Part shown: piece after piece, positions 43,844-50,799 of the stretch | How positions within the stretch are numbered: position 1 is the first letter of the stretch | Layout of the letters: every line of letters starts with the position of its first letter | Source of the DNA: Candidatus Uhrbacteria bacterium RIFOXYB12_FULL_58_10 | GTDB taxonomy: Bacteria > Patescibacteriota > Patescibacteriia > UBA9934 > GWF2-40-263 | Assembly: GCA_001791645.1 (NCBI GenBank) | Contig: MGFA01000021.1 | Span: 1-61,450, forward strand | DNA: 61,450 nucleotides | Direction: 5' to 3' | The notes under the pieces: model-generated | Told to the model about the DNA's origin: nothing | Database searches by the model: none | Seen by the model: the letters and a program-made list of their open reading frames with translations, nothing else | Program-made: the position numbers and the translations under genes

Positions 43844-46015
43844 ATGCGTGAAATTCTCAAGACCCATTTTGGCTACGACGCGTTCCGGCCACTTCAAGAG
43901 GAGATCATGAATGCGGCGCTTCGTGGAGAAGACGCGCTCGTGCTGATGCCGACCGGGGGAGGGAAGTCACTCTGCTATCAGCTACCCGCGCTCCTGTTTG
44001 ACGGGGTGACTCTCGTGATTTCGCCGCTCATCGCGCTCATGAAGGACCAGGTGGACGCGCTCGTGGCAAACGGCATTGCCGCCGCATTTTTGAATAGCTC
44101 GCTCACGGACGACGAAATGGATTCCGTGCGGTTTCGCGCGCTGTCCGGGGAATTGAAAATATTGTATGTGGCTCCGGAGCGCCTCGCGTCCTATGGGTTC
44201 CAGGATTTTTTGCGCCAGTTGCGCGTGTCGCTCATTGCCGTTGACGAGGCGCATTGTATTTCCGAGTGGGGACACGACTTCCGGCCCGATTATCGCAACC
44301 TGAAGGATTTGCGCCGCGCGTTTCCGGACGTGCCGGTCATGGCGCTCACGGCCACGGCCACGCCGAAGGTGCGGGAGGACATCGTGGCGCAGCTTGGCAT
44401 GCCGTCCGCGCCGGTTTTCGTGTCGAGTTTCAACCGTCCAAACCTGAACTACGTTTTGCGCCAGAAGCAAAATGCGTTCGCGCAGCTTGCGCAACTGTTG
44501 GAAACGTATCGGGAAAAGCCGGTGATCATCTACTGTTTCTCGCGCAAAGACACCGAGTCGCTCGCCGAGAGCCTGTGCGCGGCCGGCTTTCGCGCCGCGG
44601 CATACCACGCGGGGCTCGATCGCGAGACGCGCGCGCGGACGCAGGACGAGTTCATTCGCGACGAGGTATCCATCATCGTGGCCACGATCGCGTTTGGCAT
44701 GGGAATTGACAAGCCCGACGTCCGGCTCGTCGCGCACATGGATTTACCAAAGTCGATCGAGGGCTATTACCAGGAAACCGGTCGCGCGGGACGCGACGGG
44801 CTGCCGAGCGAGTGCGTGCTGTTCTACTCGTTCGGCGACAAGCGCAAGCAGGACTTTTTTATCGGTCAGATTGCCGAAGAGGCCGAGCGCGAGCTTGCGC
44901 GGGCCAAGCTCGCGCAGGTGATCGCCTATGGCGAAACCGACCAGTGTCGGCGCAAGTTTCTGCTCGAGTATTTCGGCGAGCCGTGGGACGACGAGCGGTG
45001 CGGGTCGTGCGACAACTGCGTCGCGCAGCCGAAGGAGTCGCGCGACGTCACCGAGCTCGCGCACAAGGTGTTCGAGGCGGTCATGCGCACGGGCGAGCGA
45101 TTCGGCGCCGCGCACGTGTGCGACGTGCTGCGCGGATCGCGCAAGGAACGCATCGTGCAGAATCGCCATGATACGCTCACGGTCCACGGCACCGCGCGCG
45201 ACGTGTCCGTTGACCTGCTGCGCGAGGTTATCCGGCTCATGCAAAAACAGGGATATCTCCAAAAGAACGACGGCGATTATCCAACGCTTTGCGTGAGCCA
45301 GTACGGTCGCCAGGCGTTCGAGGATGGAGAGCGCATTCTCCTGCCGATTTCTGCGTCGGAGCCCGTGCGCGCCTTTGCGAAGCCGTCGCGTAACGCAACC
45401 GCGGGCGGTCTCGCCTTCGACCAGGACCTGTTCGACCAGCTCCGTCGCGAGCGCAAGGCAATCGCCGATGAACACAATGTGCCGCCGTTCATCATCTTTG
45501 GCGACCGCACGCTGCAAGAGATGGCGTTTTATTTTCCGCAGAGCAGGGAACGCCTCGCGACGATCTTCGGCGTGGGTGCGCGCAAACTCGACGCGTTCGG
45601 CGAGCTGTTTCTCGCGGTGATTCGCGGTTACGCGACGGAACGCGGCCTGGCCGAGCGACCGAACCCAAGGCAGCCCGTCCGACCGATGGTCGCCTCTGCG
45701 CCCAGGCGATCATCCACGATCAGCCAAACCGGCGAGCTTGTGCGGCAGGGCCTGTCGCTTGAGCAGATCATGGTCGAGCGCAAGCTCTCCGCCGGGACGA
45801 TTATCCAGCATGTGACGGCGATCCTTGGCGCAGGGGAGGACCTCGACATCGAGTCGCTCCGTCCGTCCACCGCTCGTCTAACTGCCATTGGGGACGCCTT
45901 TCGCGCCGCCAACACGTCGTTTCTTACACCGGTCAAGGAAATCCTCGGTAATGATTTCTCCTACGACGAAATTCGCCTCGCCCGCCTTTTTCTCACCAGA
46001 GACCAACAAAATTAA
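43844..46015 (+). CDS. recQ: DNA helicase RecQ
   Basis: TGGGKSLCYQLP, DEAHCISEWGHDFRP, QETGRAGRDG, Zn/RQC, HRDC. Confidence 0.97.
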   Translation: MREILKTHFGYDAFRPLQEEIMNAALRGEDALVLMPTGGGKSLCYQLPALLFDGVTLVISPLIALMKDQVDALVANGIAAAFLNSSLTDDEMDSVRFRALSGELKILYVAPERLASYGFQDFLRQLRVSLIAVDEAHCISEWGHDFRPDYRNLKDLRRAFPDVPVMALTATATPKVREDIVAQLGMPSAPVFVSSFNRPNLNYVLRQKQNAFAQLAQLLETYREKPVIIYCFSRKDTESLAESLCAAGFRAAAYHAGLDRETRARTQDEFIRDEVSIIVATIAFGMGIDKPDVRLVAHMDLPKSIEGYYQETGRAGRDGLPSECVLFYSFGDKRKQDFFIGQIAEEAERELARAKLAQVIAYGETDQCRRKFLLEYFGEPWDDERCGSCDNCVAQPKESRDVTELAHKVFEAVMRTGERFGAAHVCDVLRGSRKERIVQNRHDTLTVHGTARDVSVDLLREVIRLMQKQGYLQKNDGDYPTLCVSQYGRQAFEDGERILLPISASEPVRAFAKPSRNATAGGLAFDQDLFDQLRRERKAIADEHNVPPFIIFGDRTLQEMAFYFPQSRERLATIFGVGARKLDAFGELFLAVIRGYATERGLAERPNPRQPVRPMVASAPRRSSTISQTGELVRQGLSLEQIMVERKLSAGTIIQHVTAILGAGEDLDIESLRPSTARLTAIGDAFRAANTSFLTPVKEILGNDFSYDEIRLARLFLTRDQQN

Positions 46016-46110
46016 GCCAACCTTTATCCCTTGCGTCGCGGAATCGTCCTTGCTATACTCTCCACGCCGGAACCATTCCGGGGTAGCTCAGCGGTAGAGC
46101 AGTGGACTGT

Positions 46111-46578
46111 GGCACGCGTTTGTCGACTTTATTGAAAAATATGGCCGACAAGCGAACCTACGCCCAACGTGCAGAAACGATAAAGCGCGCAGTCAGTAAG
46201 CGTCGGAAGAACGTTCGGACGCCGGCCATCGAGTATCTTGGTGGCAGGGGTCAGAATTGCATACTGATTTGCGCGAATTGTCATCGCGAAGCGCACGCGG
46301 GCATTACGCAGCTTCCGGCGGAGACGTCGGAATGAAACAGGGTGAATTGTCCCGCGTAAAAAGTGGGATCCCGCAACAGGCGGTGACTGGAAGCCGTCGT
46401 CGGTAACGACACGGTAATCAGCAGCCAAGCTCGATCATCGGGTCGAGAAGGTTCAGAGACTATCCTTTCGAGGAGTACCTCTCCGGCAAACGCTGGGGCG
46501 GGAAGCGCCCTGCATCCATGCTCGTTTGAGAAGGATGAAGATATAGTCCACGCTTTCGGGAAACCGAGAGACCACGTG
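46111..46578 (+). ncRNA. Group I self-splicing intron (468 nt) at tRNA position 35/36
   Basis: U before the 5' splice site, terminal G, Q AATCAGCAGCC (46416), R GTTCAGAGACTA (46451), S AAGATATAGTCC (46538), P3 CAGGGTG/CGCCCTG, P9 GAAA hairpin, IGS ATTACGCAG (46303). Confidence 0.93.
46141..46335 (+). pseudogene. Internally deleted HNH homing-endonuclease ORF inside the intron
   Basis: ...AIEYLGG joined almost directly to CILICANCHREAH; the first CxxC and the HH core are missing. Confidence 0.7.
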
Positions 46579-46613
46579 TAATCCATTGGTCATGGGTTCG
46601 AATCCCATCCCCG

Positions 46614-46718
46614 GAGCCATGAGAAGGCGTGTGAGGTGACCCACATGCCTTGTCAAAAAGTCGTCATTAAAAAATGGCGATTTTTTGTTTAATCCTTGAG
46701 CAAATAGCGACCCTTGGT
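46614..46718 (+). repeat. Direct repeat R1 (105 bp) starting in the tRNA-Asn 3' end
   Basis: 103/105 identical to 50596-50700; contains the hairpin AAAAAGTCGTCATT...AATGGCGATTTTTT. Confidence 0.93.
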
Positions 46719-46930
46719 GGCTTGCCAAGAATTCCAAAACTCCCAGAACACAAATTAATGGCCGTCGATGCCGTAGAGGCTCGTAACGGGTCTATATTAG
46801 CCGCATACAATTCCTATGTCCGAAATGCTGGTTAGTTCTTTGGTTCAACTGTGCATCTTGCACAACAGGAGTCGCGGAGGAGGCAAATAAATATCTAATA
46901 ATTCTAGTTCGTGTTACTATTTTCTACGAT

Positions 46931-47602
46931 ATGCTATCAAAAACAGAATTGAAAAGATTAGAAAAGAGAGCCTGCAAGCCGACTCCACTAAACGAAAAAG
47001 GATTTAATCCAAAAGCAAACATTCCTTTCGGATGTACGACCGATGCCGTACGAAAAGCAATGCAGGACTATTTGGATTTTTTGAGCCATATAAACCTAAA
47101 GCTTCATTCGAAAAATATCGAGAGACTCGAATCTTTTGTGATGATGGCTAATTTCAGCAGTATAGTAGGTGAATTCATGGGTGCTAGCATTCCAAAGTAC
47201 TGTCAGACAATATTACGGAACGAATATCATAATGGTCATCCAGATTTGATCCCAACGAATCGCTACCCGAAAAATTCAATTTTGCATGGTGAGGACGGAA
47301 TCGAGATAAAGGCTTCAAGACACGTCAGTGGGTGGCAAGGTCACAACCCAGAGGCTTGTTGGTTACTGGTTTTCATTTTTGAAAGCAATACACCACGCGA
47401 TTCAGCAGCAGGCAGTCCTCCCATTCCATTCAAATTCAAAGAAGTACTTGGAGCGCAACTTAAAGTCGAGGACTGGACTTTTTCTGGTCGCTCAGCGACG
47501 AGTAGGCGAACTATCACCGCGAGTGTGAACAGGAGTGGGTATGAAAAGATGAAAAGGAATTGGATTTATCGAGATGACTCATCTTCAAGTGTCGTTGAGT
47601 AA
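46931..47602 (+). CDS. Putative type II restriction endonuclease (PD-(D/E)xK fold)
   Basis: GHPDL...GIEIKAS motif, 223 aa, convergent with and overlapping a DNA methyltransferase gene. Confidence 0.72.
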   Translation: MLSKTELKRLEKRACKPTPLNEKGFNPKANIPFGCTTDAVRKAMQDYLDFLSHINLKLHSKNIERLESFVMMANFSSIVGEFMGASIPKYCQTILRNEYHNGHPDLIPTNRYPKNSILHGEDGIEIKASRHVSGWQGHNPEACWLLVFIFESNTPRDSAAGSPPIPFKFKEVLGAQLKVEDWTFSGRSATSRRTITASVNRSGYEKMKRNWIYRDDSSSSVVE

Positions 47603-49129
47603 CGACAACTTCGGCACGGCCTTTTTTGCCAGATCAAAATACTCTGAGTTCACTTCAATTCCAATTGATTCAAGTCCACACGCGTTTGCCGCAGCGAGCG
47701 TCGATCCAGATCCCATGAATGGATCTAGTATGATTCCCTTACCCAAAGGCAAAGAGGCATAAACGATTTTTCGCAAAAACGATTGCGGTTTTAGACTTGG
47801 GTGCCCTGCGAGTTTTCGTTCATGTTGAGAAGTGCGTTCGCTAGGAATTAAATCCTCGAACGGATTGCCATTGGGAAGGCGGCGAAGTCCTCCTGTTCCA
47901 AATTTTCGCAAAGAATCTTGGACGCGCATGCCAGCGGGGAGCTTACTACGAAAGATACCCCACGGTTCATAGCATCCCCTTGGTAAGGAACAAACGTTCG
48001 TGAATTCTTCCTCAGCATTTTTTGGTCTGTCCCCACCGCGCAAAGTTCGTACTAATCGCATTGTCTGCCCCCTAAACTCAAGACCGCCGTCTTCCAGAGC
48101 TCTATAAACAAGAGGTGCAATGAAAGCATTGTTCGCAATGAACACATGCCCTCCCGGTTGAAGAATTCTGCCGGACTTCTCAGCAAGTTTTCTGAAAAAA
48201 TTGTAAATTCTAGAGCGTTCTTTTTCGTTAAGTGCTGTAAATCTAGGTAACGGTGATCGGGTATGGCCATCAAAGGAAGGCGGAACTCTCCAAACACCCC
48301 CGCTTCCGTTTTTCATTTTCTTGAGCTGATCCGTATCAAACTCTACAACACCGTAAGGCGGATCTGTAACTATTGCGTGAATGCTATGTGGAGCGGCATT
48401 ATCCATCCATTCAAAGCAATCCGCATGGAATAATCGAGACAAGCCGATCTTTTCGGACGGGTAATCGCGACGTAGTTGGTTGGTTTTTTGGTTATCCAGT
48501 AGCGATTCTTGAAAAAGTGTTTTTGGTACTTCACTGGTAAAACTTTTAATCACATCTACAACAGTTCCTTGAATTGTGAGACGGGATGGTTGAATAAAAA
48601 TTGGCTTTAAATCTGGATTGGCTGGCTGAAGTCTGACCCGATTCTTTTCTTTGTAATATTGTTTTAATGTAGTTTCTGATCCATCAATCAACGCGACGAT
48701 TTTTTGACCGTTCTCTGCTACTTGTTGATTTCGAATAATTACAACATCGCCGTCATTTATATTTTCGTCAATCATGCTATTGCCAGAGACTCGAAGAGCG
48801 TAGGTGTCTCCGGACCTTGGCAGCTTTGATCGTGGAACTGCTATTGTTTCATTCTCTGCAATCGCCTCGATTGGCTTTCCAGCGGCGATCGTTCCGAGTA
48901 ATTGTACTTGGACCAGAGAGTCGTTATCCGGCAAGGTAAGAGCTCGGGCTCTATTTTCGACCTTCTCAAGATGACCGCCATTTTTTAACTTTGAAACATG
49001 AAAATGGGCTGTCGAAACAGAAGCAAATTTAAAATGTTTCTGGATCTCCTCGAGAGATGGCGAATATCCCTTCTTTTTAGAAGAACTTCTTATGAAGTCG
49101 AGTACTTCTTTTTGACGTTTGGTTTGCAT
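47585..49129 (-). CDS. LexA repressor fused to a beta-class (N4C/N6A) DNA methyltransferase
   Basis: LexA wHTH (TKRQKEVLDFI...GYSPSLEEI), IAAG cleavage site, GNSM Ser, TTLK Lys; then DPPY, HPSLKP, DPFMGSGST in the same frame. Confidence 0.93.
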   Translation of the reverse strand: MQTKRQKEVLDFIRSSSKKKGYSPSLEEIQKHFKFASVSTAHFHVSKLKNGGHLEKVENRARALTLPDNDSLVQVQLLGTIAAGKPIEAIAENETIAVPRSKLPRSGDTYALRVSGNSMIDENINDGDVVIIRNQQVAENGQKIVALIDGSETTLKQYYKEKNRVRLQPANPDLKPIFIQPSRLTIQGTVVDVIKSFTSEVPKTLFQESLLDNQKTNQLRRDYPSEKIGLSRLFHADCFEWMDNAAPHSIHAIVTDPPYGVVEFDTDQLKKMKNGSGGVWRVPPSFDGHTRSPLPRFTALNEKERSRIYNFFRKLAEKSGRILQPGGHVFIANNAFIAPLVYRALEDGGLEFRGQTMRLVRTLRGGDRPKNAEEEFTNVCSLPRGCYEPWGIFRSKLPAGMRVQDSLRKFGTGGLRRLPNGNPFEDLIPSERTSQHERKLAGHPSLKPQSFLRKIVYASLPLGKGIILDPFMGSGSTLAAANACGLESIGIEVNSEYFDLAKKAVPKLSLLNDT

Positions 49130-49154
49130 AGTCTTGACGGCGTTAAGTTCACTC

Positions 49155-49183
49155 ACCATAATAGAAAAAAAGTAGAAAGTCAA
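49155..49183 (-). promoter_or_regulatory. lexA-MTase promoter with candidate operator
   Basis: TTGACT-N17-TATGGT with TTCTA-N6-TTCTA filling the spacer. Confidence 0.6.
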
Positions 49184-50432: not shown

Positions 50433-50595
50433 AGGATTATTGTGAAAAGCCCTTGAAACCATCGTATCCATGATTTGAGACACAGGCCATTCTCGTGTCT
50501 CATTTGTCTCATTTCGATGAGACCCGGGTGCCAGTTTGACCCCTCTAAAAGACCCCTCAAACATTGTCGTAAAGTGAGTTCGAGACCCGTACGCC

Positions 50596-50799
50596 GAGCC
50601 ATGAGAAGGCGTGTGAGGTGACCCACATGCCTTGTCAAAAAGTCGTCATTGAAAAATGGCGATTTTTTGTTTAATCCTTGAGCAAATGGCGACCCTTGGT
50701 AGACCATCAAAAAACCGAACCGCCTGGGACGCAAAGTCGTCGAATTTTTCTTAAACGCCCGAAACTGCAAATTCGCCCTATTTTTTCGGTTCGATCCCC
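50596..50799 (+). repeat. Repeat R2 (R1-like part plus R3-like part)
   Basis: 50596-50700 matches R1; 50677-50799 matches 55387-55510; T-loop-like GTTCGA at both ends. Confidence 0.92.

Follow-up and report, generated by a model that had tools for sequence, protein, structure and literature searches.

The question raised by this locus is how an organism whose assembly appears to lack the tRNA for a single amino acid decodes that amino acid. The window analysed here (the whole stretch of DNA, 61,450 nucleotides) is contig C21 of a draft assembly of 1.12 Mb in 28 contigs with N runs (57.6% G+C), which is 100% complete by marker genes and 0.77% contaminated. ARAGORN reports 43 tRNA genes for 19 amino acids in this assembly, with asparagine alone missing, and the set becomes complete when a split gene in the window is counted. 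This tRNA-Asn(GUU) gene lies at 46077-46619, and a group I intron of 468 nt interrupts it between nucleotides 35 and 36. A first-pass annotation of the sequence had proposed a group I intron at exactly this point of the anticodon, and the proposal is borne out by an Rfam score above the gathering threshold and by relatives that fix the junction. From the comparative evidence described below, we consider it very probable that this is a genuine group I intron, which splits the anticodon of the assembly's sole tRNA-Asn(GUU) gene at 35/36. The parts of the gene are as follows.

46077-46110, + strand: 5' exon of tRNA-Asn, positions 1-35, read from the sequence; ends in ...GGACUGU, with C32, U33, G34 and U35
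46111-46578, + strand: group I intron, 468 nt, ending in ...ACGUG; identified by Rfam RF00028, homologues at the same junction and covariation
46579-46616, + strand: 3' exon of tRNA-Asn, U36 to G73, beginning with UAAUCC; identified from the sequence and the cloverleaf of the joined exons
46617-46619, + strand: encoded CCA, directly 3' of the 3' exon

When position 46110 was joined to 46579 by a script, the exons gave a clean 75-nt cloverleaf that ARAGORN recognized as tRNA-Asn(gtt), in agreement with the earlier reading that they rejoin to the anticodon GUU; from the unjoined gene ARAGORN reported no tRNA, and the suspicion that standard annotation would overlook this gene was therefore justified. 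The Rfam model RF00028 (Intron_gpI) matches positions 46334-46570 with 59.1 bits (E 1.9e-12; gathering score 50), and this is its sole match in the 1.12-Mb assembly. The match begins only at 46334 because a P1 loop of 197 nt, which contains an open reading frame (ORF), separates the 5' splice site from the guide sequence and the remaining ribozyme. The DNA of the window is present in groundwater metagenomes, a look for RNA runs containing the locus found none, and in run X1, which may be the source sample of the assembly, a 24.5-kb contig spans 45800-46643 with 0 differences. In run X9, the sequence 45800-46110 is matched without a difference by a contig of 359 nt that breaks off right at the 5' splice site, and positions 46133-46428 are without cover; this break might reflect a different or intron-less allele in a near-identical strain or, equally, a break of the assembly graph at shared tRNA sequence. 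A scan of 45900-46800 for promoters and terminators returned 0 sites of each kind, and blastn of 46300-46622 against named phages gave no match.

The position of the junction follows from comparison with relatives. In a BLAST search of the locus against 60 related genomes, the intron interior was found in 16, of which 13 gave complete split genes, and all 13 show the order CUGU|intron...GUG|UAA, their introns measuring 230-579 nt. Since the base after CUGU is G and UAA must come from the 3' exon, the insertion can be placed uniquely at 35/36. Intron-less relatives of the same order (L019-L021) carry a gene that reads CUGUUAA, and three congeneric genomes (G004, G007 and G008) likewise have uninterrupted CUGUUAA genes that ARAGORN reports directly as tRNA-Asn(gtt); the 5' half of the window gene differs from the uninterrupted tRNA-Asn of G004 by one base. 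These uninterrupted genes fix the junction and indicate that the presence of the intron varies among relatives. A brute-force ARAGORN scan of neighbouring junctions gave many spurious tRNA calls and was replaced by this empty-site comparison. A blastn comparison of the window flanks with the loci of G003, G004, G007 and G008 returned no matches that would mark the filled and empty sites as orthologous loci.

The presence of a second, uninterrupted tRNA-Asn gene, which the first-pass annotation had left to be checked, would bear directly on the need for splicing. None was found in the 100%-complete draft assembly by ARAGORN or by BLAST with the exons, whose other matches in the same genome are parts of tRNA-Gln and tRNA-Phe plus a repeat of the tRNA-Asn 3' half at 50575. 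Because asparagine is the only amino acid lacking among the tRNAs of an assembly of this completeness, its decoding probably depends on splicing of the intron, which we infer from structure, conservation and need; in a draft of 28 contigs with N runs, an unassembled second tRNA-Asn is possible. Among the other tRNAs called by ARAGORN are two tRNA-His(GTG) (C6:35850-35926 and C24:31634-31708), a tRNA-Ile with the anticodon TAT (C14:55285-55361) and a tRNA-Pro(CGG) of 91 nt, longer than usual (C1:3513-3603).

To describe the ribozyme, we used an alignment (A2) of 46 rows, consisting of the window intron and 45 introns of up to 300 nt, onto whose columns the structure written from one reference intron (L018) was mapped; 56 pairs were counted. 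The elements, as they lie in the window, are listed below.

46107-46111, + strand: P1, 5' strand (exon C32-U35 and the first intron base, G), pairing with 46307-46311; 5' splice site after 46110
46307-46311, + strand: P1, 3' strand, the internal guide sequence (C followed by GCAG); GCAG invariant in 46/46 rows
46314-46331, + strand: P2 hairpin, 7 bp, GAGA tetraloop; 7/7 pairs changed on both sides among relatives and 7/7 standard in the window
46338-46342, + strand: P3, 5' strand, CAGGG, pairing with 46508-46512; 3/5 pairs with both-side changes
46348-46423, + strand: P4-P5 domain, identified by pairing in the window and covariation
46348-46349 and 46387-46390, paired with 46418-46423, + strand: P4; outer two pairs covary
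46393-46402 with 46407-46415, + strand: P5/P5a, GUAA loop; pairing in the window and covariation
46424-46426 with 46450-46452, + strand: P6; pairing, covariation and fold
46430-46447, + strand: P6a hairpin; pairing, covariation and fold
46458-46462, + strand: P7, 5' strand, GACUA, pairing with 46544-46548 (UAGUC) and forming a pseudoknot with P3
46463-46466 with 46471-46474, + strand: P7.1-like hairpin; 3/4 pairs covary
46478-46501, + strand: P7.2-like hairpin; fold of -14.6 kcal/mol
46508-46512, + strand: P3, 3' strand, pairing with 46338-46342
46513-46517 with 46533-46537, + strand: P8 hairpin; 4/5 pairs covary
46538-46548, + strand: J8/7 (AAGAUA) and P7 3' strand (UAGUC); GAUAUAGUCCA invariant in A2
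46553-46570, + strand: P9 hairpin, 7 bp, GAAA tetraloop; 6/7 pairs covary
46578, + strand: terminal intron G (omega-G), with the 3' splice site directly after it

Across A2, standard pairs occupy 92.0% of the cells, compared with 33.2-45.1% when the 3' partners are slid by 1-3 columns, a share that is favoured by deriving the structure from one of the aligned sequences. Changes on both sides occur in 39/56 pairs as given and in 21-25 when slid, and the covariation score of 0.468 compares with 0.05-0.11 for the slid pairings and 0.153 for shuffles, with 0/500 shuffles reaching it. All 56 tested P1-P9 pairs are standard in the window intron, which also retains all 48 columns that are invariant across the 46 rows. 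In the window, each of the helices P3, P4, P5, P6, P7 and P8 is paired, the P3/P7 pseudoknot of the RF00028 core included. The first-pass annotation had described the core group I elements as readable, and each one that it named was indeed present, most of them being backed by the comparison with relatives.

Individual elements show the same agreement. The P1 pairing CUGU/GCAG, including the wobble between U35 and G46308 at the 5' splice site, is invariant in 46/46 rows, and the fifth P1 pair, which joins the first intron base to the base just before GCAG, shows covariation (GC 27, AU 8, CG 3, GU 2). The outer two base pairs of P4 form in 100% of the cells while changing identity (UA 39 and AU 7; GC 35 and CG 11). 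P7, which is expected to be the guanosine-binding helix, reads GACUA/UAGUC in 46/46 rows and agrees with the Rfam consensus AGACUA...UAGUC; the motif GAUAUAGUCCA belonged to the search pattern by which most A2 rows were found, and it is present too in the 13 relatives found by BLAST. The intron end ...GUG precedes UAA in 14/14 BLAST-found split genes (window included) and, by construction, in all of those found by pattern. GNRA tetraloops cap L2 (GAGA), L5a (GUAA) and L9 (GAAA) of the window intron. By eye, no convincing conserved P10 pairing with the 3' exon was found across A2, and in the window a P10 of 4 bp (AUUA/UAAU) is possible only at a 1-nt offset. P10 is dispensable in many introns.

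Three features go beyond the earlier reading of this intron: a pair of hairpins separating P7 from the 3' strand of P3 (P3'), a 37-nt insert in P4 and a decayed HNH gene in the P1 loop. The first of these can be placed in the context of the wider family. We scanned genomes, one per species, for a pattern consisting of the J8/7-P7 motif, a gap of 20-30 nt and GUG|UAAY, with the 5' exon sequence CUGU left out of the pattern, and found at least 119 loci, of which at least 70 are complete split tRNA-Asn genes. Other matches listed comprise 6 cut by contig ends, 11 with a doubtful or missing 5' exon and 32 outside a tRNA context. The record titles of the matches listed are mostly those of Saccharibacteria, Parcubacteria, Peregrinibacteria, Gracilibacteria, Uhrbacteria, Kaiserbacteria and other Patescibacteria, with a few assemblies titled as Omnitrophota or 'Gammaproteobacteria'. 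In genomes sampled evenly across the phylum, the exact intron-exon pattern occurs in 19/401 genomes (18/400 without the window's own), and the reversed control gave 0. The intron is part of a mobile family that is widespread in Patescibacteria.

Together with the window and the 13 BLAST-found relatives, 69 other genomes bring the collected set to at least 83 distinct split tRNA-Asn genes, with 54 introns of 185-350 nt and 29 of 433-723 nt. The two hairpins between P7 and P3' are found in 71 of the 83, including the window intron (family A). Family B, the remaining 12, has neither hairpin and forms a single clade with a support of 1.00 in a tree of the aligned core. The P7-P3' interval is where introns of subgroup IA bear P7.1 and P7.2, and subgroup IC3 is defined by a compact core devoid of both. 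Among viral contigs (IMG/VR), 6 of 33 pattern matches were split tRNA-Asn genes (L145, L147, L155, L169, L176 and L177), three of which (L145, L169 and L177) have a common, distinct acceptor stem; these six loci could be either copies carried by phages, able to spread the intron, or Patescibacteria contigs wrongly classed as viral, one of the contigs being 543 kb long. In genome G034 (the source of L018), a second tRNA-like 5' half lies ~84 nt upstream of the split tRNA-Asn, and contig G002:C70 contains four separate matches to the tRNA-Asn 5' half; these extra 5' halves could represent a tRNA array or tRNA fragments.

The second feature interrupts a helix of the core.

46350-46386, + strand: 37-nt insert within the 5' strand of P4, following its second pair and preceding its third; absent from 13/13 close relatives

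The insert consists of two abutting hairpins, 46350-46368 and 46369-46386, without linker bases, and these two hairpins are also its minimum-energy fold (-15.8 kcal/mol, z -2.59). Such an arrangement implies, as a structural model, that P4 becomes a four-way junction without unpaired linker. Two-hairpin inserts at the same site are present in 7 of the 71 collected family-A introns (the window and L098, L034, L118, L037, L084 and L061). The six others measure 36-71 nt, and all seven fold as two end-to-end hairpins of largely different sequence whose stems are compensated. The carriers are scattered across the intron core tree, so that introns may exchange the module or may have lost it repeatedly, and the inserts of the window, L098 and L034 start alike by eye, which suggests common descent or exchange between introns. 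The insert leaves every core pair intact, and we read it as a tolerated peripheral module. That it represents a peripheral module of group I introns not described before, in which two hairpins turn P4 into a perfect four-way junction, is a tentative proposal that we put at well under even odds; if true, the insert could stabilize the fold or tune its rate, and hence the supply of tRNA-Asn. The notion that the insert is a repeated mini-element was dropped, as it is single-copy in the genome and has elsewhere only chance matches of 10-11 nt. A P3-like stretch inside it, AACAGGCGG, was aligned by Rfam as P3 and was rejected as such, the relatives placing the true P3 at 46338-46342.

The third feature lies in the P1 loop.

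46141-46335, + strand: ORF of 64 aa within the P1 loop, a decayed HNH homing-endonuclease gene overlapping the guide sequence and P2 at its 3' end

Against the Pfam HNH profile (PF01844), the product of this ORF scores 19.6 bits, under the cut-off of 21.4, and matches only the C-terminal half of the profile (positions 31-46 of 47). It aligns end to end with a 106-aa protein from the same genus (G003), which reaches 23.6 bits against the same cut-off, except that residues 39-80 (42 residues) are missing from the window product; the corresponding deletion is an in-frame gap of 126 nt, with which the first CxxC and the catalytic HH are lost. The loss of these motifs and a Pfam score below the cut-off suggest that the 64-aa product is an inactive remnant. 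An ORF of the same family occupies the P1 loop in 29/29 long introns, of which 22 have apparently intact copies (100-135 aa) and 7, including the window, decayed ones. The decayed ORFs are truncated, frameshifted or internally deleted, and a second one with an in-frame deletion is found in G036. Members of the family are ~106 aa long and have a basic N-terminal stretch (KRTYADRAEYLKKAV-KRR). The best match of the G003 protein among solved structures is 6me0_C, the endonuclease domain of a group II intron maturase (E 0.0014), and its relatives amount to 801 database clusters at E up to 0.001 among 805 candidates. Source annotations of the family are HNH or McrA-like nucleases or hypothetical proteins, and the few source organisms shown are Patescibacteria, Parcubacteria or an unclassified 'bacterium'. 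In the core tree, ORF-bearing and ORF-less introns are interleaved as sister pairs, as would fit repeated loss or gain of the ORF.

These observations can be combined into a course of splicing that follows the textbook group I mechanism. In the precursor RNA, C32-U35 and the first intron base would pair with C-GCAG (46307-46311) to create P1 with its U35.G wobble. A free guanosine bound at P7 would attack after U35 (46110|46111), and the terminal G46578 would next occupy the guanosine site. The 3'-OH of U35 would then attack after G46578, so that U35 is ligated to U36 and the anticodon reads GUU again. The ~106-aa HNH endonuclease of the family presumably cuts intron-less tRNA-Asn genes and thereby drives homing. 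With 42 codons lost, including those of the first CxxC and the HH, the window intron is probably no longer mobile on its own, and it would persist since the cell needs its splicing.

An intron that splices is not the only reading of such a locus. The window intron has the lowest RF00028 score of 14 introns (59.1 bits, compared with 70.6-97.5 bits for the 13 relatives), its P4 helix is broken into by an insert, and the draft assembly, in 28 contigs, contains N runs, so that the element could be a decaying one that no longer splices within a pseudogene, with a working tRNA-Asn in an unassembled part of the genome. Misfolding is conceivable in view of the second P3-like stretch that Rfam aligned within the insert. 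The low score, however, is explained by the ORF in P1 and the insert in P4, while the 56 tested core pairs and the 48 invariant columns are all kept, the six other introns with two-hairpin inserts at the same site have intact cores, and no second tRNA-Asn was detected by ARAGORN or BLAST in a 100%-complete assembly; we therefore regard a dead element as unlikely. An error of assembly, in which a tRNA-Asn gene and an unrelated intron fragment were joined into a chimera, deserves consideration in that tRNA genes and conserved intron cores are hubs of shared k-mers in metagenome graphs and the contigs of runs X7 and X9 break near the junction. Yet the X1 contig crosses the whole locus without a difference and the same architecture recurs in the 83 distinct split genes collected, which leaves such an artefact with almost no probability.

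A genuine intron could also splice only with the help of a protein, either a host factor or the remnant 64-aa product acting as a maturase, instead of by itself. Many group I introns require protein cofactors in vivo, and the remnant ORF is still in frame, as is the decayed ORF of G036 with its in-frame deletion. On the other hand, 54 of the 83 collected introns are without any ORF, which argues against a general dependence of the ribozyme on the ORF product, and the other decayed ORFs, truncated or frameshifted, show no common pattern. Moreover, the three GNRA loops (L2, L5a and L9) are of a kind that usually stabilizes a self-sufficient fold. Dependence on a cofactor thus appears quite improbable, somewhat more so than a dead element though less so than an assembly artefact, and autonomous splicing of the tRNA-Asn intron is the reading that we prefer.

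The element is of a known and common kind, of which the P4 insert alone is possibly undescribed. Like the classical tRNA introns, it is a small anticodon-loop ribozyme with P1 formed from anticodon-loop bases, GNRA tetraloops in L2 and L9 and, probably, a host tRNA that depends on splicing. It differs from them in its host, tRNA-Asn, in the site at 35/36 and in the two P7-P3' hairpins that the majority form, including the window, carries; the minority form without these hairpins (12/83 collected) looks more IC3-like. With the Synechocystis tRNA-fMet intron it shares an endonuclease gene of its own and a scattered distribution among relatives. The enzyme of the Synechocystis intron, I-Ssp6803I, is of the PD-(D/E)XK type, whereas the family in the window is HNH. 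Homing endonucleases of the HNH type are found in phage group I introns, for example I-HmuI and I-TevIII, and the present family resembles these in being a small HNH (His-Me finger) nuclease encoded within a group I intron, with the intact relatives reaching the Pfam HNH cut-off. Unlike them, it is a separate family of ~106 aa, and the copy in the window is devoid of the catalytic core.

The survey of Williams (bioRxiv 2020, doi 10.1101/2020.01.27.920355) mapped 5292 intron-split bacterial tRNA genes and raised the number of types from 4 to 21. The first-pass annotation had already surmised that the class was not new, and that view is supported both by this survey and by at least 70 species-level genomes in which the gene is split in the same way. 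In the survey, assemblies of unnamed phyla have 0.49 split tRNA genes per genome, tRNAscan-SE and ARAGORN at their defaults overlook such genes, introns longer than ~400 bp hold whole or partial genes, and the four classical tRNA introns are all marked as subgroup IC3 (doi 10.1101/2020.01.27.920355). The window intron resembles the introns of that study in its anticodon-loop site, the U at -1, the G at omega and its frequency in metagenome assemblies, and under the naming rule used there (anticodon-loop position 4, U at -1, G at omega) it is 'Asn.4Ug'. The running text of Williams (2020) never names Asn, the list of 21 types standing in Table 1 and Figure 3 outside that text, and 'Asn.4Ug' is likely among them. 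Nor does this running text mention an HNH gene in P1, an insert in P4 or P7.1/P7.2 hairpins, all three of which are present in the window. No paper that names a group I intron in bacterial tRNA-Asn came up in our text search of the literature. PMC5733544, which reports an ORF of 150 codons in the Synechocystis tRNA-fMet intron, deals with tRNAs other than Asn, and Lui et al. (2021, PMC8172020) describe some tRNAs of their circularized genomes as hard to detect owing to group I introns. According to PMC8450103, tRNAscan-SE 2.0 is not designed for such introns.

With default tRNA finders, this genome appears to lack tRNA-Asn, as will many Patescibacteria genomes, and tRNA-based estimates of completeness or calls of codon reassignment can be misled in this way. 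In this minimal genome, essential decoding would rest on a ribozyme that persists beyond the decay of its own nuclease gene, which fits the usual life cycle of homing introns, in which invasion is followed by decay of the nuclease gene and then by retention or loss. Current understanding is unchanged by these findings, and the 83 collected introns, as naturally occurring versions of a small ribozyme in which a four-way-junction insert in P4 is optional, are possibly useful for folding studies.

The 3' side of the gene has features of its own. A direct repeat of 126 nt, 93% identical, occurs at 46593-46718 and 50575-50700, 3982 nt apart, and comprises the last 24 nt of the tRNA-Asn gene, the encoded CCA and 99 nt downstream. 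Right after the tRNA, the G+C content falls from ~62% to 43-46% and stays low for ~9 kb (~46600 to ~55500). The pattern suggests that one or two genomic islands have integrated at the 3' end of tRNA-Asn; no integrase was found among the ORFs scanned. Within this region, an ORF of 532 aa (47585-49183, - strand) combines a LexA DNA-binding domain (Pfam E 5.5e-15), an S24 peptidase (3.3e-29) and an N6/N4 DNA methylase (4.6e-21), and may encode an SOS-type self-cleaving repressor fused to a methyltransferase. The neighbouring ORF of 223 aa (46931-47602) has no Pfam match and could encode the partner restriction enzyme.
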